This document shows, piece by piece, positions 13,176 to 61,923 of a DNA stretch of 64,000 bases. The position numbers and the translations under genes were made by a program. The DNA is from Takakia lepidozioides. Taxonomy: Eukaryota > Plantae > Bryophyta. The stretch is from positions 18,290,001 through 18,354,000 of the forward strand of contig CM060734.1 of the NCBI GenBank assembly GCA_030704615.1, read 5' to 3'. Positions within the stretch are counted from its first letter, which is position 1. The number at the start of each line of letters is the position of its first letter. Under the pieces are notes generated by a model, which was not told the origin of the DNA, searched no databases, and saw only the letters and a program-made list of their open reading frames with translations.

Positions 13176-13284
13176 GGCCGCTTGGTTTTTCGGAGAAAAA
13201 CACAGTAAACTGTTAGTTTTGTGGCTGAAGTCCACTTTTAGACATGTTTTTCATGGACTCCTTGACTGCTAGAGGGAAATCGGA

Positions 13285-14890: not shown

Positions 14891-15289
14891 GACCTAGCAA
14901 TGCAAGCAACAAAAAACAGTCACCTATAAATGAACGTGTTGTGAATGTAGAGTGCAATGCGATAGCCCAACACTTCTACACCTGTCAGCAACCCAAGTGG
15001 GTCGATGTGGGTTGTAGTGTTGAGCTTATACACAATCTGCTGAAGTGGCTTTGGTGGAAGCCACAACGGCAAAAGGTGCGCACCCTCCTCCTAGGCTACA
15101 CTCTCGTTCAATGGAAGATAACATCCAAAACAACCTCAAGTGTTTGCGCCAAAAGAAGTGAAGAGCTTGGTGACCCTCCTCCCTTATATATGATCCAAGA
15201 GGGATGAAAGTGAAATGAAAATGAAATGAATAAATGACGAACCAATAACGCCCACCAGAAAAAGGCTGTACAACCATATTTGTTGTAAT

Positions 15290-30904: not shown

Positions 30905-31028
30905 TTCAACAACCATGACTACCTGCTCCTCCACTATATTGAGCTTTATCCGCTCTGCTAGCAAAAACACATTTGCTAAGGTGGGTTGGGCCACTTGTAG
31001 GAGAGTTGCATCCCAAACCCTTCTCCTC
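30905..31028 (-). mobile_element. Gag fragment of the same family as the DNMT-bearing Ty3/Gypsy element
   Basis: LRRRVWDATLLQVAQPTLANVFLLAERIKLNIVEEQVV versus LKRRVRDATLLQAAQPTLADVFLLAERIELNMVEERVV in ORF 55082-55924. Confidence 0.9.
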
Positions 31029-38900: not shown

Positions 38901-38908
38901 GCTCGCAT
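32951..38908 (-). CDS. SMXL: SMAX1-LIKE protein (KAI2/strigolactone signalling repressor, ClpB-like), about 1260 aa, 5 exons
   Basis: Starts with double Clp-N ([41 protein letters not shown]), then D1 ([29 protein letters not shown]) and D2 ([17 protein letters not shown]). Has a degron-like YRGRT (33998-34009) and EAR motif LDLNL (33476-33490). Phase-consistent GT-AG exons: 38908-38338, 37956-37203, 36660-36327, 36078(or 36054)-35895, 34896(or 34893)-32951. Confidence 0.95.
35200..35625 (-). mobile_element. 5'-truncated non-LTR retrotransposon 3' end (RTEX/CR1-like) in SMXL intron 4
   Basis: [32 protein letters not shown] is a degenerate CCHC knuckle typical of LINE C-termini. It ends in a short ACAAACAAC tail. 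Confidence 0.65.
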
Positions 38909-40329
38909 CCCTCTCGCTTAATAACTACCCTACTCTCTGCAGCTATTTTCCTGCTTGCAAACGCAAGCTGTCTTCTACACCAGTTCGCTTATACACCTAT
39001 CCAGCAGTTTCACCCCAGAACCTTCGCCCGCTCTTTGGTATGAATGGTAGTCTTCCACCGCCTGACGCGCAGTCGAAATGCGGTCAGCACTGCATACGTT
39101 GGACAATCACTCTCTCCCTACTTCTGCGATTCCCTGTACCATCGTCTTTTGTTGACCACCCTCCCTGTAACGCACCTGCGACAGCTTACCAATGAGCACG
39201 AAGCCAAGCCTGAATGGCCTGGCACAATCTTTTCCATTTGGAAGACCAGGCTCGCCTGCATCTCTCCACCGCAAAACCGCAATTTGAGCAACCATTCTCG
39301 TATCTCTTTCTGTTTATCGCTCAGTTCCAGTGTACTGTCCCTTGGCTAGAGATTGACCCACTAATGCAGTCTGACACAAGGTTGACTGTACATGTCCACC
39401 ATCGCCAGACCCGCTCCAGTTTGAGAATCTCTGACAGATTGCGCTAGCCACTTTCCTACCTCCTTATGCCCGACTGCATCTCTCTTTCTCTCTCTTCATT
39501 AACACTGCTTCTCACTAGTCACACTCTCTCAGTTACTACTCGCCACCGCCTCCTCCAACCCCGGTTACACCCTCAGCTCCTGTTTAGTTTGGTTTACCTC
39601 AACTACTCTTTACATTACACATTTCTTGTGAACCCGTTCTTCATCCAACCGCGGCAATACGTGTATCCACTGGGGGTGGTGTCCATCATCCATCCGGATA
39701 AGCAGCTCGACCGACTCTAACCACTCAACTGCAATCACTCATCTATTTTCCATTCAGCTCTGGAAAGCTGCATCTCATCCATCCCACCCATTCTATTCTA
39801 ACCCACACCTGTACTTAGACTTTTCCTTATCCTAATCTGCCTCGCTTCTGTTCATACCGCTGCTCCGTCGACCACCATCCACTGGAAAGGCGGGAGTTGG
39901 CTTCAGACGCAGTGCAAAGGTTCCCAGTTCAACTACAGAAATTTTAGGCAAATCCAAGATGCAACCGCTCAAAAGTGCGGGTAGGATTGCGGTGGGTGGG
40001 GCCGGCCTGACGCATTCAATCTTATTTCCAGAGCCGTGTATGCCTCTCAATTTGTATAGTCTGGTCTATAATGAGGCTCGTCTCATAGAGGTGGGTTACC
40101 TCCGTGGAGACTAATTGAGTCAGTTTTTTTTTTTTTTCCCAAAATCGCCACAAGGGACACAAATAATTTCTACCCAGTGCCCATGTGGCGAGAATAACGA
40201 GGTGGCAATGTCGTGGCTCTTTGCTTTTAGGGCAGAGGGTCGGACATGGGAGGAGTTGCTTCTGTTGTGGGGGTAGCTGCAATAATGGGAGTGGGGGTTG
40301 AATGACCCCAGAGCAAAGTTTGGTGCACC

Positions 40330-42299: not shown

Positions 42300-42779
42300 T
42301 TTGACGCCCGGAATTAGGGGAGATCAAAAAGAGATTTGCCCTTCTTGAGGAGTGGATTGAACTCAACGACCCACAAACTGGAGGGGCATTAGGAAGAGGC
42401 GTCTCCCTCCCTTCCTAAACCCCGATAGGTGCTTTGAGAAGGGACAACGAATTAGGTCCCGGCTATCAGCGGTTCAGGGGTTTAGGCAGTAGGATATAGT
42501 CAATAAAACTAAGACTTGGAAGACAATTGTATGATAAAAACCACATAAACAAACCGTAGGATTTAGGAACGCAATCTTGCCGTGTGAATGAGAACTTGAT
42601 TTCTTCTTTGCCGGTAGAATTAGATCTAGATCAGTAGCCGCCACTAGCATTACCGCGGAACCCCCTGCACTAACCACAGTCGGGTGGGCGGTTCTTGAGC
42701 CCAACCCATTCCGCTACACACCTCAACCCATCCTAGCTAGTATGCCGTCACCCTGACCGCGCGCGTCCAGGGCTCGTCA
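42300..42779 (+). mobile_element. 3' part of an LTR (same family as 60758-61923, opposite orientation); may start near 41111
   Basis: The reverse complement aligns with 60758-61230 and ends GGGCTCGTCA. Confidence 0.8.
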
Positions 42780-43304
42780 CAGGGACCTCTCATGGATTTT
42801 GCAGAGCTCATGGTGAAATTCTTGGACTAAAGCTATGGACCTCGACTCGAGCTCGGACGGGCCAAATGCTCCTGAATATAATGCTTCTGGGTGCGCTAAC
42901 TATTAGCTCCCTATAATGAAAGATTGGATACCCGAGGACCCTACTCATCATGGGTGCCCCCGAACTTCCCTCGGGTGCCCCGAACTCTGACCTAACATGG
43001 GGATGCTCAATGGGTCGCTCCCACATTGATAACAGAAAAGATTGGATACTCAGAGGACCTTACTCATGGAATAGACACAACATTTCTATCCTAATAATTG
43101 GACTACTCTCATGGCTCGCAGGGACCTCTCATAAATTTTGCAGAGCTCATGGTGAAATTCTTGACTGGAAAGATTGGATATTATGAGGACCCTACTCATA
43201 CTACTTTCACTAGAAAAGGTCGTAGGCCCTTCTGGGCTTTTCTACGCCTGAAATCCCTCCACTCATGTGAGGGGAGCAACAACCACTGCTCTAAAACTCA
43301 CCTT

Positions 43305-45337
43305 TTACCCCCTCACTGCTTTTCTGACTTTCCTCTCTCTATGAGGAATACTACAGCGGGATAAGGTGGAATTGACAAAAGGTTTAAGGGGTGGAGGTGA
43401 CTGGCCAAACCACGGGGGTTCGGTCTCTGCAACTGCTACCTCCTTCTCCTTGGGACGGATGTTATCTTCTTCCTGAAGTACAGTCTCCACCATTTTGCGT
43501 GCATCCAATTTCATTATCGTGAAGTCTAAACCCTCATGTTCTGATGCGGAAGTCGTTGACTCCGACGCCACATACCTAGGGCCTTTCCCCAGCGAATCTC
43601 GTTGCTGTCGGGTCATAACGACATAGCTACATTTGTTGGGTCTAGCTTGCGTGGTTGGGGTAGCTCTTGACTCACTTGCAATCCAATTCACCTTATGTTG
43701 CGTCTCCTGTTGGCGCACTGCATGGCTTTGTTGTACATTGGTCTGCTGCTGCTGGGGGGCCGTCGATGTGGAGCCTGATGTCCTCCCCGCACCGTACATC
43801 CTGAGAGGGAGACCATGTATTAGAAGATCCCTGGGCTATCTGAGCCGCAGGATTGGAATAAGCTACTCGGGGATTCTTCTCGTAGCTGCATTGCCTCCTG
43901 AATATGACGGGCCCGCCTGATCTGGCCTAGGCCGTTGCACAATTTGCGTTGGGGTGGCGAAATACATGCTATGCTGATGTGGTAGAGGGTTGGGTGGCGC
44001 GGTTTCATGTTGATCCGGAAATGGGGCTCGTTGCCCTTCCAAATTCCTCTCTACCTGCTGAATAGTAGCCGGTGCGGGACGGTCCACCTGCCTACGAGGA
44101 CATCTCTCCAACGGATGACCCTGTTGCCCACAATGGAGACATACGATGTCACTCCAACACTCCTCCGTTTGGTGGCCCACTCCACCACATTTTTGGCATA
44201 CCTTCCGTGGCTGGATGAACTGACGTTTTTGCCTCTCCTGATAATTCGGATTCCGGCTTACCTGCCTTTCTCGAATGGGATAAGGACAATGTTGAGCAGC
44301 ATGTCCTGGGCCGTTGCAGTTGGAACACCACACCTTTGCTGGGTTGGGACCGGATTCTTCAATTGGGGCCGCATCTCGATATCCTACATAGCTGGTGATC
44401 TGCTGGCCAATGGAGCTCATGCCATCCCCATTGTCTCAATGGTCTTCATGAGAGACGTTAATTGCACCTCTAGATGGCCCACTTGTGAATCAGATTGCCC
44501 GTTTGAATCTGCATGCGAGTTGGTAGGGACGACACTCGTGTATCGTGGTGCGGTTGGCGCCGCAACTAGTGTTGGGGTCATTGCTGGGATGTATGGTCTT
44601 GCCCCTCCAACATAAGAGGGCGTGTAATGCAAAGCGGGCTGGATTACCGCTATTAATGGTGCCGGCTTCTGAGTGGGCTCAATCGTAATGTATGATGGAA
44701 GTGCTAGCTCCGGCATCTTGACTCATTGCACCTGTCGATGCATGTTGTCGAAATCCTTGTCGACATGTATGGCATCTACCAGGGTTGCAGGCCTCTAGTG
44801 CAGTACATGGAAGTGAGTGGCCTCTCATAAACCACTTAAAAAACAATCTTTAAGCACCCCGTCGTCTAGGGGGGTCAAGGGATTTTGGAGTTGCATCAGC
44901 TCCCGGAACCTCATCTCGAAGTCCGCTACTTCCTCTGTGGGGCCTTGACGGATTCTCGCCAATGCCATCAAGAGGTTGGTGAATTGGTGCACCGCCCGGA
45001 AATGATCCAAGAATGCGTCCCGAATCTACTGCCAAGTGACAAATGTCCCCGGTGCCTGTTGCCAATACCAAGTAGATGTTCTTCCCCTCATGGTTGTGGG
45101 AAACCAAATCAGCCAATAAGCATCGTTTAGTGCTTGGTTAGAATAACAACACTGAATAAAACTCTTCACATGATATTCTGGATTTTCATGTTCTTCCACG
45201 GAGAACCAAGGCAAATGCCTGGGCAATATTAGCGGGGCTAAACCTACCGGGACCACAATGGGTACCTCAGGAGGTCCTCGAATATGTGCCATGGTTGACA
45301 CTAATGACGGTGATGGACTTTTGACCGTGCAAGTCAT
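43305..45337 (-). pseudogene. Ty3/Gypsy gag (Athila/Tat-like) with three CCHC zinc knuckles, multiple stops, pol absent
   Basis: LPWFSVEEHENPEYHVKSF...FPTTMRGRTSTWY...IRQGPTEEVADFEMRFREL is a retrotransposon gag domain. Knuckles: CSNCNGPGHAAQHC, CQKCGGVGHQTEEC, CLHCGQQGHPLERC. Confidence 0.9.
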
Positions 45338-46620
45338 GGTGAATAAGAGGGACTAGATACAGGGGAAACCACTCGAACACTCGACGTTAGAAGAACTATC
45401 TGTATTCTCTCCTTCCCACTCTATCTTATCTAGACTCTGAGTTTTTGAGTCTGATGCTAGACTCAATTCTCCAGGTTCTTCCCTAGTAATTGATCTCGGA
45501 CTGCTTCTCTGGCTAGTCTTCATTGTAACTGAGTATCGAAAGATATGCTATCTAGACTTGGGAGTGTTGCTCTTGATCCTGAGCTAGACATGTACACTCA
45601 CTGTTGTGCTAACAAAGATTCTCCTACTTCAGTTTGCACTAGAGGACCTATATTTCCTTGAACGACCATGTCAAGAATAAAGGAAGTTAGATCCGGATAT
45701 CTTCCATGGAATGTTGGTGATGGGGGTATGTCAGTATGCAGCTTCCCGTGTATTAGTCAATCTTCGTGACGTTACAGTATCTACACTCATCCCGACTTCG
45801 TACATAATGTGTTGTTAGGAGCTGACATGTATTCCAAGGAGTAAAGAAGTCTACCTGCCATCTTAGGTGTGATGTAAAATAAGACCTTGAGTGTAAAGCT
45901 CCTAAATATTTCCCTGGACACGAACAATATGGCCAATTGCGCCTGTCTTTACACCAATAAAAATGTTCGGGGGAGCCAATTTCCGAGGGTTGTTCGCACC
46001 AGACCCTTTCGTCTATCCACCCTTTCTTGATAGGCTTTCACTGAGCCAACTGATCAATAAAAGCTTCTACTTTGAGTCGAACCTCGGGGCTATGTTTCCA
46101 AAACCTGCTTCGGATCCTTTTGACCTTTGCTTCAAAAAGTCATGCCCTTTAGGGATTCATGGAAAAAAACAGTCTGGTTGATGATGATGTAATTTCTCGA
46201 ACGACTAAGACAAGTGAATTTTCCTTGCAAGGAGCGTTACAAAGCTTGCTTGATCGCAAGCTGAATATTTAGGAAAGGAAACAACAATGCAAATCTCAAG
46301 ACCTTAGGAGGGCCAGAAAACCTGCTTACCTAAGCTAGTGACAACATCACCTCATCCTCATTAAAGGGTGATCCTGGTACTGAGGCCAATGTAGAACTGC
46401 TAGTAGAAGAAACGGAATGTACTACCCTTAAAGGAATAATTGGGAGGAAATTGGTGGGGATGTCCCTTGCAAAGTGAAATGGTGGTGGCCGCTCCGGATC
46501 TGGTATGACGCTCGTGGAGCCGCTTGGGGACAGTCCTCAATCCATGTGATGTAATGTACGGTCGTTGCCACATCCAACTATCCATTGGTAATTAGCTCGA
46601 TGACTAGTGCGGCTGTATTA

Positions 46621-47764
46621 CACTACTACGTTTAGGAGGGTTTAACGACGCATGTCCCCCCGTGGCGCCTCTTCTGTTCGACGCCCCCGCCGCGCTCCCA
46701 TCGTGCGACGCCCTGGGCGTCGCTCGCCCCCGTGCAACGTTTCTGGCGTCGCAAACATAATGCCAAAATCCACAAAAACGTGAATTTTGGCCAAGTCCTA
46801 CAATGCGAAGCCTCAGGCGTCTTGAGTAAAATTTATTAAAAAAAAACGTTGCAAACTAGCTGCGACGCACTGGGAGTCGGCCCCTAGTGCGACCTTCCAA
46901 ATGTCGGTTAGGATGTTGTGACGCCCTAGCGACGCCCAGGGCATCGCAACAAGCACCCCGGGGAATCCAAAAAACAAAACAAAAAATGTCATTTTCTAAT
47001 TGCGACGCCCTGGAATCGCTGTATTGGAGCGACACACTGGGGGTCGCTTTAGAGTTTTTTTTTGAATTTGAATTTGAATTTGAATTTTTGATAAGTCATT
47101 TTTAGCGACGCCTCAGATGAAATGATCATTTTTTGGTTTCTGCAGTAAAGGGTATAGGAAAAGCGTCGCATTTAAGCGACGCGAGGAGTGTCGCTTTGAG
47201 GTCCCGACGAGCAACCGATGTCTGCATGAACTACCTTATGTACAATTAAATCATATGTTTGTGTGTAAGTCTTGTAACTGATATGTTGGTTAGTGTGAAG
47301 TGCCTTACCATGTAATCTAGGGGTCTTGAGTTCAAATTTGCCTAACAACATGTCGAATGATTTAGGAACTCGATATGTGTTGGCTACTTGCAAACACATG
47401 CTCATGGGTTAGGTTTGACATTAATTCGATGCTGCCACTACTTTGCAAGTGTTTGTCTCGCCATTTTTTGAACCGTGTGCAGTTTCGTCATTTTTTAAAA
47501 TTCAAAATTCAAAAAAACCTCCAAAAGCGACACCCAGGGCGTCGCTTTTAGAAAATGTTTTGGGGCGTCACAAGTGGGGATTTCCAGGGGGGGTGGATGT
47601 GTGACCCCCCAGCGTCGCCTTAAATCCTGCATCTGCGATACCCTCACAACGATGCATCTGCAACGCCTTCGGCGTTGCAGATTCGTGATTTTCGCGGGCC
47701 CGGAAATAGGCGAATAGCTCGGGCGTCACTAACCCCCCCCCCCCCCCGGAATGCGGGTGTAGTG
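46621..47764. mobile_element. Non-autonomous CACTA (En/Spm) element
   Basis: Termini CACTAC...GTAGTG, 3-bp TSD TTA on both sides, and many GCGACGCCC subterminal repeats in both orientations. Confidence 0.9.
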
Positions 47765-48546: not shown

Positions 48547-48606
48547 TGACGAGCCCTGGGCGCGCGCGGCCAGGGTGACGGCATACTAGCTAGGAGGGTC
48601 GTGGCA
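48547..48606 (-). mobile_element. 60-bp U5 LTR end of the Gly-primed element
   Basis: Nearly identical to 60758-60813 and to the reverse complement of ~42733-42779. Confidence 0.85.
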
Positions 48607-48691
48607 GAGACCAGCTACAAAAGAAAATGTGCCTATACCCGAGGGGCCTATAACCGTGGGAATTGTCATTTTCAGTTTGGCTAATATGCTG

Positions 48692-48776
48692 TGTCGTGCG
48701 CATACATATCGCTACACAACTACATCGCTGTCCAAACCACACCACACATATATGCACAATAAAGTAGTCTGCCACA
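48692..48776 (-). repeat. LTR segment A, outer copy (85 bp, TG...CA)
   Basis: Identical to 49128-49212. Confidence 0.95.
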
Positions 48777-48777
48777 A

Positions 48778-49125
48778 TGATAAACAACCAACGAACACAC
48801 TGTTGACACAAAACATGAAAACCAAACCATCACTCTTAGAAATAGTAGTCGAACCAGGGGCACCCCAAGCTATGGGGACTCCACCCCACAACAACCTACA
48901 CTCCCATCATGAGCACACTTAGTCCTAAACGATGCAGGAGCTCGGTCGCGCAGGCTCAACTCGAGAGAGATGAGCCGCGCGACGGCCGCTCTCGTGAAGA
49001 TAAGACGGACCAGGTGTCAAACTAAACTTGACACCTGATTTAACACTTGACCTAAATCCAAGTGTTAAATACAAATAACTAGTTTTATTCTAGCTGTTTT
49101 CACATTGTGCTTATTTAACTTGACA
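48778..49125 (-). repeat. LTR segment B, 3' copy (348 bp, TG...CA)
   Basis: Matches 59467-59814 with about 5 transitions counted by eye. Confidence 0.95.
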
Positions 49126-49127
49126 GC

Positions 49128-49212
49128 TGTCGTGCGCATACATATCGCTACACAACTACATCGCTGTCCAAACCACACCACACATATATGCACAATAAAG
49201 TAGTCTGCCACA
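49128..49212 (-). repeat. LTR segment A, inner copy, adjacent to the PPT
   Basis: Identical to 48692-48776 and separated from B by the dinucleotide GC. Confidence 0.95.
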
Positions 49213-49213
49213 A

Positions 49214-49224
49214 TCGCCCCCCTA
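49214..49224 (-). promoter_or_regulatory. Polypurine tract
   Basis: Minus-strand TAGGGGGGCGA, followed by T and then TGTGGCAG, the start of A. Confidence 0.75.
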
Positions 49225-49417
49225 GCTGGTGGATAGGTCCCTCTACCTCCAGATAGCTACAAGATGAAATAGCCACAACCGTACTAAGTCCTCTATCACT
49301 GTCCCTATTGTACTCAAACTCTATAGACCAAGAGGCCGGGTACAAGAGTAGCCCCATCGTTAGTCGCCGTCTTGCAATCTGTGAACTTGAGCCATGATCT
49401 CGTGTGTTCAAGGTCTC

Positions 49418-51964
49418 CTAGTAGCTGGGCCTTGCGTTTCTTGTTAGCCTTCCATGGTTGTATCCACTCCCACTATCCAATGCAATGTGGACATAACCAG
49501 CATGTGCCCACACATCCGGATCGTCAAGGTTAAGAACTGTAGCAGCTTCTCTGCGAATGGATGTAGGCAAATCCGGCTCTTGGCCAAAGAGAAGAAAGTA
49601 TGGTGAGAAGGAGGCAAGTGATGCTTGCTTGCTGAACCTGTAGCCCATGGCTAACCAGGGTAACTGAAGGTCCCAATCTCCTAGGTGTCCCCTCTGCAAG
49701 CCATACTTGCGCAAACCCCTCTTGACTGTCTGAACAACTCTCTCTGCCAAGCCATCGGCCTCAGGATGATCCTGAGAAGTGGTGCGGTGGTCTATCAAGG
49801 CCTTGTCACACAAAGCCTGAAACTCCCCCAAGAACTCTCTCCCTTGGTCCGTGAGTACCTCAGCTGGAGCACCGAATCGGCTAAGCACACAATCCAGGAA
49901 TGCATACGCAGCTCCCTCACTAGCCTTATCAGGCAATGGAACCAATTCAATCCACTTGGAGAAGTGCTCCACCATCACTAACACGTACTTGTTGTGGCGC
50001 ATGGTCAGTGGCAACGGCCCTACAAAGTCAAGACTCCACCTGTAGCCCAATCCCATGATCGGAAGAGGGTGCAATTGTGGAGTAGGGGCGTTGAATGAAG
50101 CACGCACCCTGTCACACACCATGCACCTAGCCACAAATTGTTGCACCTCTGTGTGCATACCACGCCACCAATACTGCCCCTGCAGTAGACTATGGGTGCG
50201 TCGCACCCCAAAATGCCCCAACTCCTCATGGGCATGCCGCACTAACCGTGCCCGCTGTGTTGGGTGAGGCACAATCCTCACTCGACCATCCTCCCACACT
50301 CGGAGCAGGTGTGTCCCCTCCCACCTGAACCTCTTGGCTTGTTGTAGGATCCGATCCCTCTCCTTGGCAGTCACAGTGGCTGCCGTGTCTCCAGTGCGGA
50401 GGTAGTCCAACACAACTGAATCCTCATGTATATCTTTGGCGCCACCTTGCTCATTGTTGGCCTCAGGGTCCTCAGACACTTGATCTACAGTCATCCCTGT
50501 TGCAGGTCCAACCTGGCCTTCCGCTGCCAAGATACACAGAAATGCAGATGCATGCCATCCGGGCACCATCTCCTCGTCCGTCTCACCATGCCACCGAGCT
50601 CCAGTGTCATCCTGTTGGCTCGTGCATGGATTGCGACTCAACCCATCTGCATTGCGATTGACCAAACCCGGTCGATGCACCACCTGAAAGTCATACTCTT
50701 GAAGGATGAGTGCCCACCGTGCAAGCTTCCCCGTAAGCTTGTCTGACTCCATCAACCACTTGAGTGGTTGGTGATCCGTGACAAGGGTGAAGAGATTGCC
50801 GTATAGATAGCACCTGAAGTGTGCCACGGCCCACACTGCAGCTAAGCATTCTCCCTCATATGAGCTATACTTAGACTCTGCAACATTGTTCGAGCGGCTA
50901 GCATAAGCCACTACGAACTCGCTTCCCTCATCATCCACCTGTGTGAGCACCGCTCCAAGCCCCAGCATGCTCCAATCTGTATGCAGCTGAAAAGGACGCC
51001 CCCTGATAGGTCGTCTCAAGATGGGCGCCGAGGTCAACCTCGCCTTGAGCTCTTGAAAAGCTTGTTCTTGCTCATCTTCCCACTGCCACTCCTGGTCCAC
51101 CTTGGTCAGCTTGGTTAGAGCCTTTGCAATGGCACTAAATCCCTTAACAAATCGTCTGTAATAGTTTGCTAACCCCATGAAAGCTCGAACTCGGCTCACA
51201 TCCGTGGGGCGTGGAACCTGTGCAATGGACTCTACCTTAGTCTGCTGTACCCCCAATCCTCCAGGATATATCATGTGACCCAGATACTCAATCTGGTTGT
51301 GGAAAAACTTGCACTTTCCCGGATGTAACTTCAATCCGTGCGTCCTCAAGCGCTCAAATACCCCCTGAAGGTGTCTCTCATGCTCCTCCACCGTAGCACT
51401 AAAGATGATGATGTCATCTATGTAGCACCGAGCAAACTCCACCCCTGCTAGAATCATGTCCATGACTCTTTGAAACTTAGCGGGAGCGTTTTTAAGCCCA
51501 AATGGTAAGAACCGCCACTGGTATAGGCAATCCTTCCCGTGCTCATTGATCCCCCAGAATGCCGTCTTTTGCTTATCCGCCTCCTTGATCGGCAACTGGT
51601 GATATCCGGATCGTAAATCCAACGTGCTAAAGACCTGGGAATGCCCAATGGCATCAAAGATCTCCTCTGGTGTCGGCATGGCATACCTATCGGACTTGGT
51701 CTGACGATTTACAGGCCGGTAATCACCGCACATACGTCTCTCCGTCCAATTGCCATAGACATCCTTCTTGGCTGGCATCACTGTGGCTGAAGCATACTCT
51801 CCACCAGAGAGCTCCACCAAACCTGCCTCCCAGAGATCTTGAGTCCTCATCTGAATCAAAGACCTCTCCATGTCACTGTATCTATAGGGTCTCCGAAAGA
51901 TTGGCGTGTCAGTGGCCAACTCAATACGGATCTCTTGACCCTTCAGTGCTCCCAAGTCCTTCAA
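49418..51964 (-). CDS. pol: Pol: reverse transcriptase, RNase H, DDE integrase
   Basis: RMCGDYRPVN, LDLRSGYHQL, LPFGLKNAP, YIDD; LHTDWS, YEGECLAAVWAV, TDHQPL; HEELGH...CMVC, WSLDFVGP, LTDQG, GLAER. Confidence 0.97.
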   Translation of the reverse strand: MKDLGALKGQEIRIELATDTPIFRRPYRYSDMERSLIQMRTQDLWEAGLVELSGGEYASATVMPAKKDVYGNWTERRMCGDYRPVNRQTKSDRYAMPTPEEIFDAIGHSQVFSTLDLRSGYHQLPIKEADKQKTAFWGINEHGKDCLYQWRFLPFGLKNAPAKFQRVMDMILAGVEFARCYIDDIIIFSATVEEHERHLQGVFERLRTHGLKLHPGKCKFFHNQIEYLGHMIYPGGLGVQQTKVESIAQVPRPTDVSRVRAFMGLANYYRRFVKGFSAIAKALTKLTKVDQEWQWEDEQEQAFQELKARLTSAPILRRPIRGRPFQLHTDWSMLGLGAVLTQVDDEGSEFVVAYASRSNNVAESKYSSYEGECLAAVWAVAHFRCYLYGNLFTLVTDHQPLKWLMESDKLTGKLARWALILQEYDFQVVHRPGLVNRNADGLSRNPCTSQQDDTGARWHGETDEEMVPGWHASAFLCILAAEGQVGPATGMTVDQVSEDPEANNEQGGAKDIHEDSVVLDYLRTGDTAATVTAKERDRILQQAKRFRWEGTHLLRVWEDGRVRIVPHPTQRARLVRHAHEELGHFGVRRTHSLLQGQYWWRGMHTEVQQFVARCMVCDRVRASFNAPTPQLHPLPIMGLGYRWSLDFVGPLPLTMRHNKYVLVMVEHFSKWIELVPLPDKASEGAAYAFLDCVLSRFGAPAEVLTDQGREFLGEFQALCDKALIDHRTTSQDHPEADGLAERVVQTVKRGLRKYGLQRGHLGDWDLQLPWLAMGYRFSKQASLASFSPYFLLFGQEPDLPTSIRREAATVLNLDDPDVWAHAGYVHIALDSGSGYNHGRLTRNARPSY

Positions 51965-52419
51965 ACTGAAGGCAAAACAATTCCTGTAAGCCCTTAGGAA
52001 CCGCCGTATACGTCGTCTCTCTTCTCCGGTGACAATGGGTCCAATGTCAGGCTCCCAATTGTCCTCCGTAACTGCAACCTTAAGTCCAGTGGGCTTAGAG
52101 GTAGAGGACGCGTCCCGTGGTTGCTATGCTGCAATCTCTTGAGCAGTACTCCCTTCCTGCTCAGTCAATGACAAGGCCTCATCCTGCCCCATCATCTCAT
52201 CATTGAGAACCTCCTCATCCCGAGAAGAATCCCCAACCTCATCCATCACAGCTGCCTTGGCTGCCAACTCCCTCTGAACCTCGAGCACCTCCCACGTGTG
52301 CCATGGATGTCTACACCCCGTGGTCCTCACCGGCTCGCCCCTACTCGCTGCCTGTACCGTCTCGGTAGGCAGAGAAACCATGAAGGGGAGTGCACTCCGC
52401 ACTCTACGTTGCTCAGCCA

Positions 52420-53380
52420 TAGCCAAGCTGATAATCCAGGTCAAGCAATTGAGATCCATTGCTTGCCCCAACACCTGACGCCGTGATGCCTCAGAAAGAG
52501 AAGGCACCGCCGTGGTCCAAGTGGAAAACCCCATAGCCCACTCTCGCTCGTCGGCATTAGGCTCCATTAACTACTGCAACTGAGCATCCCACATGAGGCC
52601 AGGTCCACCATCCCGAAAAGCATGGGATCCTGGGAAGCTGAGCAGTGTAGGTAATGCTGCTCGTGGTTGACCCACCCTGTTGACCACTGCCAAAGGCGAA
52701 CGATCATCGTGTCTCACACGTTGAGACTGCCTCCCTGTGTCCAAAATGCTGTCCACTATGAGGTGTGTTGGCCGCTCCACCCCATCAAATGCACGCTTGA
52801 GCAGTGCGGGTGGCATCAAGTTAGTCCACCATAGCCGTGGACGATGAGCCCGTGATCCCACTGCAGCTGCATCCAGCAGCACTGCTGACCCAAGCCACGA
52901 CCGGACTTGATGCACACTGGCCATCACCCTGGCCCGAGAATCGCCCATCAGTGGCACATTCTCTAAGATATATACTGGCGATACAACTTGATGAAGCTGC
53001 AAGTGGCGCAAAATCCGCACCATCTCCCAAAACAGACCCGTCCTCGAGTCTCGCAATCCATTGCCATGCTCGGCTGATGAATGCCCTTGGCAGGGCCAAC
53101 CTGCCACTACCAGATCAATGGAGCCAACCCGCTCCAAATCCTGCGCCCCTAGCAACGCAATGTCTGCTGGCAAGGCCTGCTGATATCCACGAACTGCAGA
53201 CACCGGCAACAACTCAGGGTACTGCTGCAGCATCTGAGCAACATGGTACAGTGAGACGCGTCGTGCAGTCTCATCCCTCTCCACATACAGGTAACGTCGA
53301 ACTCGTACACCTGCCTGCAGCACTGCAGCCAATCCAGTGCTGATCCCGCCAAATAAGTCCAGAAGGCATATGCCTTCATC
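52420..53380 (-). CDS. DNMT3-like C5-cytosine DNA methyltransferase domain of the polyprotein (one in-frame TAG at 52571-52573)
   Basis: Motif I LLDLFGGISTG, II YVERD, IV AGWPCQ (catalytic Cys), VI LENV, VIII RAHRPRLWWTNL, IX EREWAMGF, X RRQVLGQAMDL, in linear order. Confidence 0.93.
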
Positions 53381-53491
53381 CGGCCGCTGCCACACAAGAG
53401 GTGTGGTGTCCAATGGCGACAACTGAGGTTTCCCTGGTGCAATCACCGCACTCTCCTCCTCTCCTGACGGTACAAAAGCTTCTACCCAAGC

Positions 53492-55036
53492 TTATTGCAC
53501 TCGTCTATCAGCAGCTTGCTGCAAATCCTTGCTCGTACCCCACAATGGAGTGTGAGCAACCATGGCAGGCAACTCCACCGTACCATGCATGTCATCCTGC
53601 TCTGCTGGAGGTGGCACATCCTCTGCATGGGCATTGCCTTCCAGCAACTCTCCAGGCCAACTAACTGCAGCTGTGAAGGCAGCTAGTGTTGGTATCTTGC
53701 CCCGCTGGGCAACTGCAATATCCTCAATGAATGTCACAGGGAGCTGTGCACGGCGACCATCCCCTGACTGCCATCCAGGCCTGTAGAATGCTGACTCCTC
53801 CCAGAAGTCCAGGGTGAAGCCCATGGGGTATAACACTGCCCCACCAACGAGGACATCGTAAGAGACCGCGTCTGTCACAATGGCCTTGGCTCGCATTACT
53901 GAGCCATCGATAGGATGATCCGGTTGCAGTCTAATGGCCAACTGATGCCGTGTCATGCCCCGCGCCTGCTCTGATCCTCCCAAAGATGTCTGTATCTGGA
54001 AAGGACAAGGCTCCATATCCGCCTCCATGAGGCCCAAACCTGCAATAGCAGCTCTGCCCAACATCAGTGGCTGAGCTCCCGAGTCCAACAAGACCCGCAG
54101 TGGCCGGTACTTCTTGCCTGCCGGTCCACTCAAAGAGAAAATGTCATCTTGGTTGTCTAACAAGACAACTCCAGGTGTCACCATGGCGCGCTCAAAGGCT
54201 GGCCTAGCTGGCAGTTCCGTCAACCTGGCAGCTGCAGCTTGCCAGGGCGCAGCCGTGGCAGTCTTGACCCTCAAATCCGAGGATCCCTCTGCCACTACAC
54301 CTTCCACTAACTCCGCAGAAGATGAAGTGACCTCCCCACTCTCGCAGAGTGTTGCTGCTAGTCTGAACACTGCAGCTAGTCTTACCCCCGGCGTCGCAAT
54401 CATGGTTGCCGAGAACAGTGGGGCTTGACACACAGAGGTGGCTGCCCCCAATAACACACCGGCTGCACTAGCCTTGGTAGCAGGTGTCAGTGCTGCACGT
54501 GTAGCTCTCCCCAATGACATAGAAACCTCCGCCTTGGTAACAGTCGGGCGAGAACTAGGTGCCATGGATGGCGTTGACACTGTCTCCGCCAAGATGAACG
54601 ACTGAGGCAGCCTTGCCTGACGGCTTGCCTCCCCACGTTGTGGATCCAACTCCACCTCTGCACCTCGTGGCTCAGGAACTCGTGCTGCTCCTCGAGTCAC
54701 GACTGCAGCAGACTCCACCTGCTCTAGTGGTAGTGCTGCTCCGCACATGAATCCCATGCCTCCCATATCTCCTCCCTCAGGAGCAGGAGGTGGACCATCC
54801 CGCCTGGGAGCCGGTACCGCCTGAGCTATAGCCATGGCAGCGAGCCTCTGCTCTAGCTGCTGAAGCCGATTGGCCATGCCTTGGTCAACACCCTGACCTC
54901 CGCGTCCTTGGCCATGTTGAGCTTGCCCTTGGCCTGCACCTCGTGCCCGACCACCTCGTCCTCTCTGGGTTGGTCCACCTCGCCCCCGGCCACCATTGTT
55001 CCCTTGGAAATGTCTTGGGCGCAACTCAGGATGCAA
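53492..55036 (-). CDS. Gag C-terminal RGG-rich region and aspartic protease
   Basis: RVLLDSGAQPLMLG and YDVLVG; same reading frame as DNMT and RT. Confidence 0.85.
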   Translation of the reverse strand: MHPELRPRHFQGNNGGRGRGGPTQRGRGGRARGAGQGQAQHGQGRGGQGVDQGMANRLQQLEQRLAAMAIAQAVPAPRRDGPPPAPEGGDMGGMGFMCGAALPLEQVESAAVVTRGAARVPEPRGAEVELDPQRGEASRQARLPQSFILAETVSTPSMAPSSRPTVTKAEVSMSLGRATRAALTPATKASAAGVLLGAATSVCQAPLFSATMIATPGVRLAAVFRLAATLCESGEVTSSSAELVEGVVAEGSSDLRVKTATAAPWQAAAARLTELPARPAFERAMVTPGVVLLDNQDDIFSLSGPAGKKYRPLRVLLDSGAQPLMLGRAAIAGLGLMEADMEPCPFQIQTSLGGSEQARGMTRHQLAIRLQPDHPIDGSVMRAKAIVTDAVSYDVLVGGAVLYPMGFTLDFWEESAFYRPGWQSGDGRRAQLPVTFIEDIAVAQRGKIPTLAAFTAAVSWPGELLEGNAHAEDVPPPAEQDDMHGTVELPAMVAHTPLWGTSKDLQQAADRRVQ

Positions 55037-55039
55037 GTC

Positions 55040-56295
55040 ATAACACTGGGCATCTCCATGCCCAAACTTGCCACAATGCCCTCACTGCAACTGTGCAGGC
55101 TGTGCTTGTGTCGGCCTTCTGCCACTCTCTGGGCAATCTCTCTTGACATGGGGTCCTCCACATGTCCAATATATCACCCCTGGTTGCTGTTGGCCTGCAA
55201 AAGATGCCACGGGCCTCTGCACCTGAGGTCCCCTGTAAGCTCCATGGAACTTGGGCTGGGCAACCTTGCCCCCCTGACCACGCTGTTGGGCAGTCCCTTG
55301 TGCCTGTGGGCTGACAGTTGTGCCCCGTGTAGGCATGTCCTTGCCAAATCCAATTGTAACAACTCGCTCCTCCACCATGTTGAGCTCAATCCGCTCAGCC
55401 AGCAGAAACACATCTGCTAATGTGGGTTGGGCTGCTTGTAACAGGGTTGCATCTCGCACCCTTCTCTTGAGCTCCTTGTCCAGAATTCCATACCAAAACT
55501 GGATTGCCTGAGCTTCAGTAACCCCTTGGGTCACACTTATCAAGCGCCTCATACGAGTGTACGCCTCTCGCAGGCTCTCACTGGGTTTGCGCTGGAAGTC
55601 TTGCAAACTTCGCAGCTTCTCTGTCCGTATACCTTGGTAGTTCCTCCGCAACTCCTGGAAGAACTCCACCACCGGGTTGAATCTAGGCACATGCGTTGCA
55701 GTCGTGGCAGGAGGAGTAGTAGCACCTTTTGAACTGGTACCACCTACAGAAGTACCAGCACTACTTGCTCCACTACTGGTGCTGGCAGTGGGAGCTATTG
55801 GTACTGATGCAGCTACTGGTCGCGTCGTGCCTTGAGTAATGGAGACGTAGTTAGGTGACCAATACATCCTCCACTCCTCAATCTCTGCTTCATGTCCTCG
55901 CCTGAACTCGTGGTAATTGTCCATAGGCGGGCCATGAATGGGGTGAATAGCTGTGGATTGCGCATCTGCTGCAAATCACACCAGCTGTCGAACTCCTGAA
56001 TAAAGTCATCCAACTCGATTGTGCCCACAGCTCCAGAGTACCTACGAGGCCCCTTGGTAGCTCCATACATCTCCTCCATGTCGTCCCACAACAATGGCGA
56101 ATGAAAGTGCACACCTGTTGATGAAGCCTCCGAGTCTGTGTCTGACTCTACAGTAATTGAGGGTGGCGGTGAAGGTGGTCTGAACGGAATACCTCGTCTT
56201 GTGAACCCACTCTCAGTGTTACTGCCTGTAGCTGTACTCCCCTCAAAACCCTTGGGTAACTCCGTAATGACACTCACAATGTGCACCTCCTCCAC
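55040..56295 (-). pseudogene. gag: Gag (frameshift near 55925, mutated zinc knuckles)
   Basis: YSGAVGTIELDDFIQEFDSW...FQRKPSESLREAYTRMRRL...FWYGILDKELKRRV. Knuckles read IYWTCGGPHVKRDC and Q*GHCGKFGHGDAQC. Confidence 0.85.
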
Positions 56296-56930: not shown

Positions 56931-57560
56931 TCACTCTAACCAACCCTCCTCCTCTTTCTGCCAGGTAGCGACAAAGCAATACTCCCCTATCTCCCGCTCA
57001 CTGAACACTAAAGAAAACAAAGGTAGGGTCTGATAGTCTCTCAAATCGAAAGCTTTGAGACGGTTGCGGGTGTCCTCATTGCGAATGACTGCATCTCCTT
57101 CACGCACAACAAACATGTCATTGCTGATGAACCCCCGCTCGTGGTTGCCCTGTGCACAGTGTATCCGGCTGCAACCGTGTCTGATTGCACAAACTTGTGT
57201 AGCTCCTGCTCCTCTGCTCCAGTACACCACGGCCTTGTGGCTGAACACCTTGGTCCCCGGGGCTGTCTTTGGCTGTGTTCCAAGCCTAGCTTTCACCCAC
57301 TTTGGTATTTCACCTACAGCTGCAGAACTGCTGGCTCCAACAGAGTTCTGACTGTCCAAGGCGATATTGAGGCCCTCAATGCCAACAGCAGTCTGTTGTC
57401 TACTGCTAATGCCTGACTCCCAGTATGCAATCAACTCATCCAACTGTTCTCCACTCAAATCAGTCTGAGTTCCTTGGGAAACATAAATCCTGTCCCCTTG
57501 TGTGCACAGGCTAAGAGAAGAGACATGCCCTTCAATTACGTCCTCATTTCCCCCAGCCAT
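56931..57560 (-). CDS. Extra ORF (209 aa) upstream of gag, unknown function
   Basis: ATG-initiated open ORF in the element's sense orientation with protein-like composition. No motif recognised. Confidence 0.55.
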   Translation of the reverse strand: MAGGNEDVIEGHVSSLSLCTQGDRIYVSQGTQTDLSGEQLDELIAYWESGISSRQQTAVGIEGLNIALDSQNSVGASSSAAVGEIPKWVKARLGTQPKTAPGTKVFSHKAVVYWSRGAGATQVCAIRHGCSRIHCAQGNHERGFISNDMFVVREGDAVIRNEDTRNRLKAFDLRDYQTLPLFSLVFSEREIGEYCFVATWQKEEEGWLE

Positions 57561-58285
57561 GCAAGGAGTACATCCATTGATTTATGTCTCATGTAGACCA
57601 CAACAGATTCTGGACACAGAATTGTGGATATTTTATAGCACACTCACACTCTAAAAATTCCACAGATTTTTAGCAGAGTCCCCAAAACAAAAACCAGGTG
57701 TAGATATGTAGATTTCCTCTTTCTGCAGCTATCCACCCAAAAACTGAGTCAAACGGAGTCCATTTGACAAAGTTATGACCAACCAGGCTCTAAATCATTT
57801 AAATTATATCAAAGTTTTTTTTTTTTTTTTTAACACCAAAACGTTCCCGCCATTAAGAACCGTTCCCAGGTTTCATTTGTGGTTACAGGTGCACCACAGA
57901 CTTGCTCGCTTAGTGAGCTGCTTTGCTCCAGCGACGACTCTCGAGCTCGGGTGTATGGCTATGGCGATGGTGATGGCCTGTGCAGCGTCAGGCATCTGTT
58001 TCCCGTGATGCAAGCACTCGAGCCATCCCTAATGCAGGGACAAGCCCTGATGATACTCTGTCAGAACCTGGTGGGCAGCTGCCATCTGCACTTGCTCTCT
58101 CTTCAGACAATCTTCGGACCTAGTGTCAAATGTGGAAGTGGTGAAGGAGCTTATTGACAAAGGCAACTGTGTTGGACTATCCACAGAGTAGAGAGTAACC
58201 AGATCAGCTTCGTCATTTAGTTGAAGCTTGGAGCATAGGTCTGCATACTCCGATAGGGCAAGGCACTATCTCAATTCAGGTAGCG

Positions 58286-58504
58286 ATCATGTTCGCTTTG
58301 ACCTCCATCAAGGGAGTGGGGCGCCGTTTCGCTAACCCGGTCTGCAAGAAGGCGGACGTCGACACCAGCAAGAGAGCTGGTGAGCTGTCGGGTGCGGAGC
58401 TGGAGAACTTGATGGTGATTGTCGCGAATCCCCGGCAGTTCAAGATACCTGACTGGTTCTTGAACAGGAAGAAGGATCACAAGGACGGACGTTATTCGCA
58501 GGTC
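58286..58504 (+). pseudogene. RPS18: Captured fragment of 40S ribosomal protein S18 (uS13), antisense within the retrotransposon leader
   Basis: [73 protein letters not shown] corresponds to about residues 26-98 of plant RPS18. Both termini are missing. Confidence 0.93.
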
Positions 58505-59452
58505 AAACTTTCTTCCAGACTGATCCAGGTCCTGTCAGTCCAAGTAAGTAACCTCTTCTAGAGGAGAACTAAAAGAGATTACGGGGAGGTAGGTTACATA
58601 TGCACACAACTGGAGCTGGAACACCTGCCCTCCTGATCCACCCCCACCATAACCTCGATAGGCAGAAGTAGCAGGGTACGGGTTTCCAATTAAGCCGTAA
58701 TTCAGCTTCGAAGATGTTCAACTAGTGAAACACACAGCAGCTAAGAAAGATGCAACTGATGAAAGCCCTGCCACTCCTCACACCTCCACGCTCCCGGCAT
58801 GCCCACCAAATGAAGACCTGGAAACAATATCGATCACCCGGCAACGTAACCCTGCAGCTTAAGCGACTGTCGACCATATAACGGCTAGCCAGTCAACGCA
58901 ACGAGCTCCGCCCTGCTCTGATCTGCCAAAGAATCTTCACCTATTCATCCTTTGCACTCCCAGGGTAAGACGAGACGAGCTAGTCCGTGGCCTGGGCTCC
59001 CTCCGCTTCAGGATTGTTGATCAAATGCAGCACCTTGGTTGTTGACCGGTCATATTCCCCGTGTCCTAGCTTGGACTCCAAGACTGCAAGAGTGCAGGTA
59101 TCAGCGTTCACCGCTTGCCAGCGCTGCTCCATGCTGCACGGTAGAGCTTCTCTATAAGCTTACTAGGGAAACAATCATCCAGCTTCAAGGATCACGCATA
59201 GGTGCCAACTAGCATTTGCTGCTGAATTTTTAAGTCTCTCCTCGTGTACTCCAAAGCCTCTGGTGACTTGGTAGCTTTAGCGACTGCAATAACAGTGGCG
59301 GCTCCGGCATCGTCATCCTCCAGGCGTTTCAGGGCACGCTGAATCTTGTGATCACATTCAATGATATGCTTCTCAAACTAAGCACTACTTACACACAGGT
59401 AATCTTGCAAGTGCTAACCCTCAACTCCTACCTTGCACTCACAGGTAAGAGA

Positions 59453-59466
59453 TCATCTCTCTCGAG
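59453..59466 (-). promoter_or_regulatory. Self-complementary primer-binding site
   Basis: Plus TCATCTCTCTCGAG abuts the 5' LTR and is the exact reverse complement of CTCGAGAGAGATGA at 59649-59662 inside the LTR. There is no TGG-starting tRNA PBS. Confidence 0.85.
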
Positions 59467-59814
59467 TGATAAACAACCAACGAACACACTGTTGACACAA
59501 AACATGAAAACCAAACCATCACTCTTAGAAATAGTAGTCGAGCCAGGGGCACCCCAAGCTGTGGGGACTCCACCCCACAACAACCTACACTCCCATCATG
59601 AGCACACTCAGTCCTAAACGATGCAGGAGCTCGGTCGCGCAGGCTCAACTCGAGAGAGATGAACCGCGCGACGGCCGCTCTCGTGAAGATAAGACGGACC
59701 AGGTGTCAAACTAAACTTGACACCTGATTTAACACTTGACCTAAATCCAAGTGTTAAATACAAATAACTAGTTTTATTCTAGCTGTTTTCACACTGTGCT
59801 TATTTAACTTGACA
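59467..59814 (-). repeat. LTR segment B, 5' copy (no A segment beyond it)
   Basis: Direct repeat of 48778-49125, followed immediately by TSD GCTG. Confidence 0.95.
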
Positions 59815-60129
59815 GCTGCATTTTCCAATGAAACCGACGCTACTGCCAATCTTCTGCGGCTTGTGCTGCTATAAGTCAAAAGACACTACGTTCTTGGAAT
59901 GTTATACTTGACCATATACAAGCACAACACTGAGCTCATTTTAGAAGCATATTAAGAAATGCGGACTTTCAAGCATACAATGGACGGTGTAGTCAATGAT
60001 CATACTCATCTGTTTCAATTATGCATACAGCCAAAACACCGGATCGAAGTCGAAAAGCAAGTTTTGCAAAGTGCACGTGGTCCTGCGCTATATGCTAGTA
60101 TCCCGTTGCAGAAGAGTATCGATCTTGTT

Positions 60130-60757
60130 TTAACTCAGAGTGGCTTGGTGAATATAGAAGTCTCGTTTGGGATCACAAACCATCCTCCTCACAAATATAT
60201 AATATAAATGCTTGCATGGGACGAATTTGCCTCTTTTCCCAAGACTTGTTGACATCGTGCTAACAAAATCGGGACACGTGCAATTGAGAAAATTGGACAC
60301 TGAAGTGTCGTATGCCTTGTCTTGCAAAGCTGATGTTGATGTCATTATTGTGTACACCCGACCATATCCCGGATCCGGAACATCCATCGTACCTGCAGCT
60401 CGAGCCTGAAGCATTCTTACAGATTCCACCTTACCAAAGTGTTCTGCAGTAGGAAACAACCAACATGTCGGCCAGTGGTAAGGGCATATACCCTCTTACG
60501 AGTGGTTGTGGGTTCAAACCACCATGTTGGTTGTTACAAAGATGTCCACCTTCCTATCGGAAGGCAGTAGCCCTTCTGGGTCAAGTGACACCATAAGTTA
60601 CGCTTGCTTCGGCAACGCGTCCACCCTTTTTTTTTCTGCAGTAGGAGGGAAACATCGAACAACCTTCCCATTCCGTTTGGTGGGATGCGAGTGAGCTCCA
60701 AGAGGAGGCACTCAAGAATCACCTGATTTCACAGCACCTATAGAGACAGTGGCCCGT
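60130..60757 (-). pseudogene. SWIM zinc-finger protein fragment (possibly MULE-related), cut by the LTR at 60758
   Basis: NCTCPDF...PCKHLYYIF (CxC...CxH SWIM motif). The upstream part contains stops. Confidence 0.7.
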
Positions 60758-61923
60758 TGACGAGCCCTGGGCGCGTGCGGCCAGGGTGACGGCATACTAG
60801 GAGGGTCGTGGCAAGTTGCAGTGTAGGTTGGGCGAAGAACCGCCTACCCGGCTGCGGTTAGTGCAGGGGATCCGCAGAGTGCTAATGGTGGTCAGATGCA
60901 ATGTCTAATTCCTACCGGCAAAGAAGAGTTTAACTTCTCCACTTCGCAAGGCGATTTGCGTTTCATATGTTCTACGGTCTTTTTACGGGTTTTAGTCTTT
61001 ATTTCTCTTTCGAGTCTTGGTTTATTTACTAACTCCTAATGTCTAAGCCCACGAGCCACTTATAGCCAGGATCTCGTGATGTCCCTTCACAAAGCACCTA
61101 TCAGGCTTAGGGAAGAAATGGATGAATTCCCTCTCCCTCTGCCCCTCCGCTTCCTAGGGCTTGAGTTCAAGACACCCTTCCGGAAGGGTTAATACTTTGT
61201 TGCGCACCTCACTTCGGTAAGCTCCCCTTCAAGTCATAGTTACTCGCTTTGATGCGCGCGCCTAACTCCCTAACTGGCCGCCGGGCCAACTCGGAGCTTC
61301 GGCTGCTCCCCGGGACATAACGGTCCCCCTTTACTCCTCCACAAGACCCTCTCCCAATTTGGGCCTAGTGGAAATTCCCTTTGGTCGATGGCAGTCCGGA
61401 ATAGCTCCCCACACCTTAGTCGCTTTCCGGCTCGCACACTTACTCACTAGTTTTTGGTCACCAACGGGCTTGCACCGTTCTCGGGGTTACTACTCCCTAT
61501 ATATACTTTTGTGACTGTCCGCGGGGGTTCCACAAACAACACCACCATTTTATGGCGAACCACCACGAAAACCCTCGATTCCCGGTGATGAGTCGCGGTG
61601 AGTCTTGGCCCACCCACCACGATCCCCTTGGACCGTGATGAGTCCCAAGACTCCTCACGACTCCCACCACAAGGTCTCCGCCCCCATGGTGAGTACTATG
61701 TCACCCCCACTAAGTCCCACTAAGCTACCACCACCCCTCGTGGAACCACCCCCACCGCAACCCGGTGTGTGGGGCTCCACCTAGTGAGCGCCTCCGCCTC
61801 CTTGAGTGCCTTGGGCACTCAAGGGTGCTTCAGCCCCCGCATCTATTGTTGTCACTGCCCCTACCACAGGGGCAGCCCCTCTCGTGTCCCAACCCCCTGC
61901 CCTCAAGGCAAAGGGCCGCGACA
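60758..61923 (-). mobile_element. 3' LTR (~1.17 kb) of a Ty3/Gypsy element
   Basis: Ends TGACGAGCCC...GGGCCGCGACA form an imperfect TIR. A PPT-like GGTAGGGG lies adjacent on the minus strand at ~61926-61935. Confidence 0.7.

Follow-up and report, generated by a model that had tools for sequence, protein, structure and literature searches.

The window, the whole stretch of 64,000 nucleotides of Takakia lepidozioides analysed here, carries on its minus strand a retrotransposon of Ty3/Gypsy type that spans 59814 to 48692 and contains a DNMT3-like cytosine methyltransferase (DNMT) domain. In the frame from 55975 to 49418 (minus strand), the order is Gag, two CCHC knuckles, aspartic protease, methyltransferase, reverse transcriptase (RT), RNase H and DDE integrase, and the terminal repeats are arranged as A1-internal-B1-A2-B2. 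The features of the element, from its 5' end, are as follows.

59815-59818 (minus): left copy of the target-site duplication (CAGC, 4 bp), with the same four bases past the right end
59467-59814 (minus): repeat A1, 348 bp, 5' end of the element, beginning TGTC and finishing CA, with 5 differences from A2
59649-59662 (minus): 14-nt arm in A1, complementary to the bases right after A1; predicted 5' end of the transcript and putative primer
59453-59466 (minus): primer-binding-site position, complement of 59649-59662; the arms co-vary in other families
57800-59120 (no strand): low-depth stretch in the 5' region with an S18-like fragment and an A-run at its end
56931-57560 (minus): 209-aa open frame upstream of gag, with no Pfam match
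55043-56079 (minus): Gag, with a capsid-like core at about 55361-55693 and two CCHC knuckles; frameshift near 55931 and private stop at 55082-55084
53786-54112 (minus): aspartic protease (LLDSG); Pfam protease matches in relatives P0022 and P0040 lie below the curated cut-off
52406-53383 (minus): DNMT3-like C5 cytosine methyltransferase domain, motifs I-X unpermuted; private stop at 52571-52573
52118-52126 (minus): conserved in-frame TAG followed by CAACCA, fitting the type I (UAG-CARYYA) consensus; candidate readthrough site
49418-52123 (minus): RT, RNase H and integrase (HHCC, D-D-35-E-type spacing), stop-free, with the 3' part lost at 49499/49500
49215-49226 (minus): polypurine-tract-like G run adjoining B1; the same run precedes B in 11 related loci and L080
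49128-49214 (minus): repeat B1, 87 bp, finishing GACA, identical to B2
49122-49131 (minus): internal B/A junction GACA-GC-TGTC, reading like the two ends of the element with 2 bases between them; putative att site
48778-49125 (minus): repeat A2, with 5 differences from A1 in 348 bp
48692-48777 (minus): repeat B2, 3' end of the element, finishing GACA, identical to B1
48688-48691 (minus): right copy of the target-site duplication (CAGC), matching the left copy

As in Ty3/Gypsy elements, Gag, protease, RT, RNase H and a DDE integrase follow one another, the ends are of the TG...CA type and the insertion is bounded by a 4-bp duplication; in place of one complete long terminal repeat (LTR) at each end, the order is A-internal-B-A-B. 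A DIRS or Ngaro identity was considered and rejected, since the integrase is of rve type, no tyrosine recombinase match was found in the polyprotein and the duplications are of 4 bp. The distance from A1 to gag is about 1.5 kb in relatives and 3.8 kb in the window, and the depth of same-species contigs over 57800-59120 is 1.5-3.4e3 compared with 3e5-1e6 in the coding part; this stretch is probably a later insertion into the element. From its translation, we take the plus-strand fragment at 58199-58561 to be ribosomal protein S18-like. The 209-aa frame, which has no counterpart in 81 related loci, shows high depth in the same species, and a weak Atlas lead points to 2OG-Fe(II) oxygenases (0.81, chance level).

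The element is flanked by copies of another repeat (48547-48606, 60758-61188 and 42339-42779). Contigs connect 48598 directly with about 60833, and it may therefore be nested in an older element. A fragment with a SWIM finger is present at 60130-60495, and a further gag-like stretch, decayed and containing several CCHC knuckles, occupies 43300-46040 (minus strand). The window also contains an array of approximately 1-kb units that are 94-100% alike (18100-26800, with an inverted block at about 19100-21100), as well as tandem arrays at 12190-14280 and 15280-16270 whose units measure about 85, 96 and 50 bp; in the last of these, GC-rich palindromes are set in AT-rich spacers, and palindromes of the same sort occur at 46700-47700. 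An SMXL (SMAX1-like) gene occupies about 32951-38917 (minus strand), and its best named matches are 44-47% identical in Sphagnum, compared with 29-31% in seed plants, which makes a host among the seed-free land plants likely. A 101-bp fragment in inverted position at 30925-31025 is 83% like the gag of the element (55366-55466), and the frames beside it at 31027-31898 are presumably LINE-like.

The methyltransferase had been predicted to carry an unpermuted set of motifs, all of which were located on the minus strand: I at 53333-53362, II at 53276-53293, IV (PCQ) at 53084-53101, VI (ENV) at 52952-52963, VIII at 52826-52846, IX at 52526-52549 and X at 52451-52471. The domain lies, as claimed, between the protease (LLDSG at 54091) and the RT (YIDD at 51424), and it matches Pfam PF00145 (E 1.1e-11), the search that had been proposed as its check. 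By sequence, the nearest solved structure is DNMT3A (E 1.1e-9), followed by DNMT3B, with DRM2 and HhaI behind, while identity to human DNMT3A is about 21%. An AlphaFold model built from a 60-sequence alignment reached a pLDDT of 89.5. In full structural alignment the model is closest to DNMT3B (Z 27.9, rmsd 2.7, 277 residues aligned) and DNMT3A (Z 27.4), followed by M.MpeI (24.4), HhaI (21.8) and DNMT1 (19.2), and Foldseek likewise places DNMT3A nearest (E 4.6e-18). The class I fold of C5 cytosine methyltransferases is thus accompanied by motifs I, IV (PC), VI (ENV), VIII and X, and the region is intronless and embedded in the element. Judged from the unpermuted motif order and the DNMT3A/B-like model, the domain is DNMT3-like and not DRM. 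Among aligned relatives, the catalytic cysteine is kept in 51 of 52, the motif VI glutamate in 54 of 59 and the motif VIII arginine in 55 of 59, and catalytic and SAM-binding residues are retained in relatives down to about 40% identity. The released domain would probably be an active 5mC enzyme.

The copy in the window is decayed, and the completeness that the original prediction ascribed to its methyltransferase is true of the family and not of this copy. The in-frame stop at 52571-52573 falls between motifs VIII and IX; about 99% of same-species contig depth has another base there, which makes it private to the window copy, and the stop in Gag at 55082-55084 is private as well (>99% of depth differs). 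The proposed single reading frame held for the open reading frame starts at 55924, 55036, 53446, 52567 and 51964, which are indeed in frame, and failed for continuity, as four in-frame stops occur between Gag and RT (55082, 53492, 52571 and 52124). Relatives are open at the position of the stop at 53492-53494. Nor is 55924 the start of Gag: the start that matches Marchantia relatives is found near 56079 and has been put out of frame by a short deletion that follows it near 55931. A further deletion lies at 49499/49500, where one same-species contig carries 484 extra bases; the integrase tail is missing from the window copy, and relatives have a PHD finger at that place. The depth of same-species contigs is about 1e6 in the element and 1.4e2 in a flank bin, a figure that is not a copy number and means only that many diverged copies exist.

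The domain is neither unique to this copy nor confined to the species. Among 46 long homologs, a retroelement domain adjoins the methyltransferase in 45 and a protease precedes it in 39. Homologous gene models were found in Marchantia polymorpha (18), Calypogeia (2), Sphagnum (2) and Klebsormidium (1), and the Marchantia, Calypogeia and Sphagnum relatives, which are 56-74% identical to the window domain, share both domain and architecture, which bears out the claim of a Gypsy-Dnmt3-type domain in a land plant. Metagenomes gave 438 matches, of which the best 80 share the gene order, while viral contigs gave one distant match (L001, 34%). A deeper search returned 254 clusters (50% identity) at E<=1e-30, with relatives also in Closterium; of its 141 new representatives, 90 have retroelement domains and 76 (including P0198, P0208, P0209 and P0216) carry the methyltransferase between RNase H and integrase (RT-RH-DNMT-IN-PHD), an arrangement for which the literature examined contains no mention. 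The named members of this sister group are the chlorophytes Scenedesmus and Cymbomonas, and the group suggests a capture older than the chlorophyte-streptophyte split or a transfer between the two lineages. Intact relatives have a PHD finger on the integrase, and no chromodomain match was found in the relatives scanned.

Trees were built from 70 methyltransferase and 27 RT sequences chosen from the matches, with FastTree supports, midpoint rooting and no host DNMT3 proteins among them. In the RT tree, elements with the methyltransferase before RT form one clade together with Klebsormidium (support 0.97), and in the methyltransferase tree the midpoint root leaves the same elements together on one side, although inner nodes there are less well supported; the bryophyte-containing group is supported in both (0.996 and 0.956). 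These elements very probably belong to the same lineage as those of Klebsormidium. Purifying selection acts among stop-free relatives, as the methyltransferase dN/dS between L079 and L080 is 0.13. Between subfamilies, pN is 0.19-0.39 and pS 0.69-0.88 except for L002 versus the main group, with synonymous sites saturated, while in the decayed largest subfamily dN/dS is 0.58 for the methyltransferase, 0.58 for the protease and 0.35 for RT. Four members of a Marchantia cluster (P0417, P0418, P0419 and P0422) are MpVg models, by their names on the male V chromosome, and two of them have full-length first frames. As well, the metagenome subfamily L008 groups with the Sphagnum model P0010, and its RT is very close to that of Marchantia elements (branches of 0.09 each), which may reflect slow evolution or horizontal transfer.

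Recoding between Gag and Pol usually takes place after Gag. In this family, a stop followed by CARYY lies in the RT frame between methyltransferase and RT in 50 of 57 related metagenome loci, these 57 being the loci with RT downstream among the best 80 of the 438 matches; most belong to one subfamily, and the independent lineages number about 4-5, with 43 distinct stop junctions when the window is included. Of the remaining seven, four keep the stop and CARYY displaced by indels, one has a stop without the hexamer (L064), one a sense codon (L057) and one a deletion. As a control, CARYY follows only 1 of 625 other in-frame stops. The exact CARYYA is found in the window, L005, L026, L079 and L080, and another 46 loci carry CARYY followed by C or T. 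CAACCC, the hexamer of the largest subfamily (45 loci), departs from CARYYA by one base, with C at +6. Within the species the stop at 52124-52126 appears to be shared, there being no difference at this site among the places listed (39 of 42), and it is the loci from other species that constitute the real evidence. Four of five Marchantia models (1278-1281 aa) end 97 residues past motif X and the fifth at the same C-terminus, and proteins of Calypogeia and several further relatives also terminate at the position matching the window stop. No conserved RNA structure was found 3' of the stop, with z of -2.3 in the window and -3.1 in L080 but 0 to -1.6 in five others.

Plant viruses such as tobamoviruses use UAG-CARYYA as their type I readthrough signal (PMC3542737), readthrough in TMV is about 10% in vivo (PMC2754532), and rice RIRE2 has been cited as a gypsy-type readthrough candidate (PMC3542737; PMC2754532). 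In contrast to the private stops, the stop at 52124-52126 thus appears, on comparative sequence evidence, to belong to the design of the element and not to its decay. Because the stop and CARYY are kept in relatives and nearly absent at other stops, most of the product is likely Gag-protease-methyltransferase, and RT, RNase H and integrase would arise by readthrough, which is quite probably the route to Pol. The methyltransferase would then likely end an abundant first product and not simply be a Pol domain made 1:1 with RT.

The termini of the element were also found in relatives. Complete A-internal-B-A-B repeats are present in the window, L045, L070 and L074, and partial ones in L008, L012 and L077; the internal junction GACA-NN-TGTC recurs in L008, L012, L045, L077 and L080. 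The 4-bp target duplication is exact in seven of nine insertions with both ends scorable (window included) and has one mismatch in the other two. The 14-nt complementarity between the arm in A1 and the bases after A1 was reached by 0 of 2000 shuffles, and complementary arms of 14, 16 and 16 nt with different sequences occur in three families, with at least 8 nt in 12 of 21 decayed loci; self-priming of reverse transcription is highly probable. Given the G run ahead of B1 and the pairing between an arm in A and the bases that follow A1, the working LTR is likely B+A. Ordinary reverse transcription would then yield B-A-internal-B-A, of which the genomic order would be a circular permutation, with the ends joined and cut at the internal GACA-NN-TGTC. 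It is moderately probable that the DDE integrase opens a circle at this junction and that the genomic form derives from it, and the A-internal-B-A-B order, the TGTC...GACA ends, the 4-bp duplication and the self-priming site are all consistent with a circle that is cut within the LTR and then integrated. In a circle with two LTRs there would be two candidate att sites, and the product of the second cut, A-B-A-internal-B, was seen in 0 of 26 loci, as was B before the 5' A (0 of 26). Twelve loci look like an A-internal-B form, for which one-LTR circles, recombination between B1 and B2 or collapse in the assembly could account, and one flank is present in both forms at L039 and L077. Troyka was rejected as a model for these termini, having CG ends and a 3-bp duplication (PMC12440569). 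The permuted-LTR termini (window, L045, L070, L074 and L080) are a finding independent of the methyltransferase, and the route to which they point, with a DDE integrase inserting an LTR element from a circle, is one that standard LTR annotation would mis-call.

Taken as a whole, the reading we favour, at a probability of roughly 55%, is that of a Ty3/Gypsy family of seed-free land plants in which the methyltransferase ends the first frame, the stop is read through and the enzyme, produced in excess, methylates the cDNA of the element itself. Transcription would start within A1, giving bulk Gag-protease-methyltransferase and a rarer readthrough Pol; the methyltransferase, packaged in excess, would be released by the protease inside the particle and methylate the new cDNA or circle, and integration would be guided by the PHD-bearing integrase. 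That particle cDNA is the main substrate, so that new copies arrive pre-methylated, is slightly favoured. Methylation in advance could shield the cDNA from host sensing, determine the chromatin of the new copy or keep its own transcription down, and the data favour none of these. The CpG content of the element is unremarkable (observed/expected 0.50, with neighbours at 0.28-0.68). A wider and tentative version, against which the odds lie, would have an old green-lineage Ty3 group living in bryophytes that makes a DNMT3 at capsid level via a leaky stop, opens its circle within its own LTR and uses cDNA methylation, possibly of the att-arm CpG, to set the chromatin or the opening site.

Several other explanations bear on parts of this account. 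The stop might be the true end of the protein, in which case RT-RNase H-integrase would be a separate product, either of a spliced RNA or of translation that restarts at an ATG close by. An ATG at codon 3-5 past the stop was found in four of seven loci examined (L008, L036, L064 and L079), the largest (CAACCC) subfamily has an in-frame ATG three codons past the stop, 19 loci use TAA, and CAACCC is the commonest hexamer overall. However, the first methionine past the stop is at codon 85 in the window, 48 in L005 and 117 in L080, all inside RT, and CARYYA stimulates UAA readthrough too (PMC3542737). Moreover, the two frames are in phase, CARYY is kept with differing codons in distant subfamilies (CAA-CCA versus CAG-TTA), and in more distant relatives, including Klebsormidium KFL_009030040, the methyltransferase continues into RT without a break, all of which leaves a true end improbable. 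That the element captured a DNMT3 gene of its host recently and neutrally, as a fold of DNMT3 type and a tree containing no host DNMT3 proteins would allow, is largely refuted and its chance is negligible, because the family is wide (from Marchantia, Sphagnum and Calypogeia through Klebsormidium and Closterium to Scenedesmus and Cymbomonas, mostly with retroelement domains), the catalytic residues are kept and dN/dS is low; the low identity to human DNMT3A also speaks against it.

What the enzyme acts upon is a separate matter. It might be kept and made in bulk and yet target the insertion site or host chromatin after nuclear entry, guided together with the PHD finger of the integrase, or serve as a non-catalytic nucleic-acid-binding domain. 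Synthesis in bulk with Gag, as the stop position would imply, exceeds what one cDNA requires; the integrases of intact relatives bear a PHD finger, the Klebsormidium domain was not active in yeast (PMC5890265), and the 23 private C-to-T changes in the window copy (2 CG, 8 CHG and 13 CHH) show no CG excess. Against a target other than cDNA or a non-catalytic role stands the retention of catalytic and SAM-binding residues to about 40% identity, as expected for an enzyme, while related dinoflagellate retrotransposon DNMT3s methylate CG de novo (PMC5890265); we consider such a role unlikely. The chance is slim that the methyltransferase marks the CpG of the B-end att arm (CACGACA) on one LTR of the circle and thereby determines the site at which integrase cuts the circle open. 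This att-arm CpG is present in three distant subfamilies, the 24 B ends comprise 17 CACGACA, 4 CATGACA and 2 CACAACA, as deamination-type changes would give, and just one of the two possible openings is seen; yet host methylation after insertion explains the deaminations equally well, and geometry around the LTR-LTR junction could cause the asymmetry. The earlier suggestion that the enzyme acts on a circle and controls att-site choice gains independent support from the termini for its circle and att part, and no link from methylation to att choice was seen.

The family is present in the genetic model Marchantia polymorpha as gene models with open Gag-protease-methyltransferase frames, and what retrotransposon methyltransferases do thus becomes a question that a plant can answer. 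From the conserved stop a high ratio of enzyme to RT is expected, which a cis-acting 1:1 model would not give. In addition, the copies add uncounted DNMT3-like genes to bryophyte genomes; one Marchantia methylome paper lists five methyltransferases (PMC5784723).

This kind of capture has been known since 2018, when the DNMT3-like domain of KnitGypsy-Dnmt3 was described in a Gypsy element of Klebsormidium nitens (de Mendoza et al., PMC5890265), and Repbase or supplements may already contain bryophyte elements. Later papers of the same group say 'streptophytes' without detail in their available text (PMC12344493; bioRxiv 2026.05.21.726589). In the literature searched, with figures, some supplements, subscription journals and Repbase outside its scope, there was no account of land-plant members, a leaky stop, target duplication or self-priming, none of six Marchantia gene ids appeared and no split-repeat Gypsy paper was found. 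The land-plant members, the conserved leaky-type stop and the details of the termini are thus new here insofar as no earlier account was found.

Like the type I readthrough sites of tobamoviruses, the site described here is an in-frame stop followed by CARYY in a plant; this candidate site differs in having C at +6 in most loci, and it is placed after protease and methyltransferase instead of after Gag, the usual position in Gag-Pol elements. The self-priming Ty3 elements Tf1/Sushi and Tcn1 also have a complement in the LTR interior to the bases past the 5' repeat and occur in seed-free plants (PMC6317226), while the window family has permuted termini and, in the relatives scanned, a PHD finger in place of the chromodomain of chromovirus clades (Tcn1, Chlamyvir). 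The available text of that survey does not mention a methyltransferase or PHD finger. In foamy virus, too, a DDE integrase cuts the palindromic junction of a two-LTR circle (PMC1180852); that cut at the LTR-LTR junction restores the order, whereas the cut proposed here, inside the LTR, would permute it.

SymbioDIRS-Dnmt3 of Symbiodinium shares a DNMT3 within a retroelement polyprotein and split direct repeats. It has a tyrosine recombinase where the window element has a DDE integrase, its capture is called independent by the authors, and its enzyme methylates CG de novo in yeast (PMC5890265). The closest system is KnitGypsy-Dnmt3, with an unpermuted DNMT3-like domain between protease and RT, purifying selection and DIRS-like A-coding-B-A-B repeats (PMC5890265, Fig. 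4c legend for the repeats). KFL_009030040 has the order PR-DNMT-RT-RH-IN, falls in the same RT clade and, from its species and architecture, would be one of the copies of de Mendoza et al. The role of retrotransposon methyltransferases was left open in 2018, the sole plant-lineage enzyme, that of Klebsormidium, having given no de novo methylation in yeast, a result its authors called inconclusive (PMC5890265). The available text of that paper makes no mention of a target duplication, self-priming, an internal att-like junction or readthrough for the Klebsormidium elements. It reports the combination for the alga only, with methyltransferase and RT in one open reading frame; here it occurs in land plants, where a conserved stop and its hexamer separate the two.
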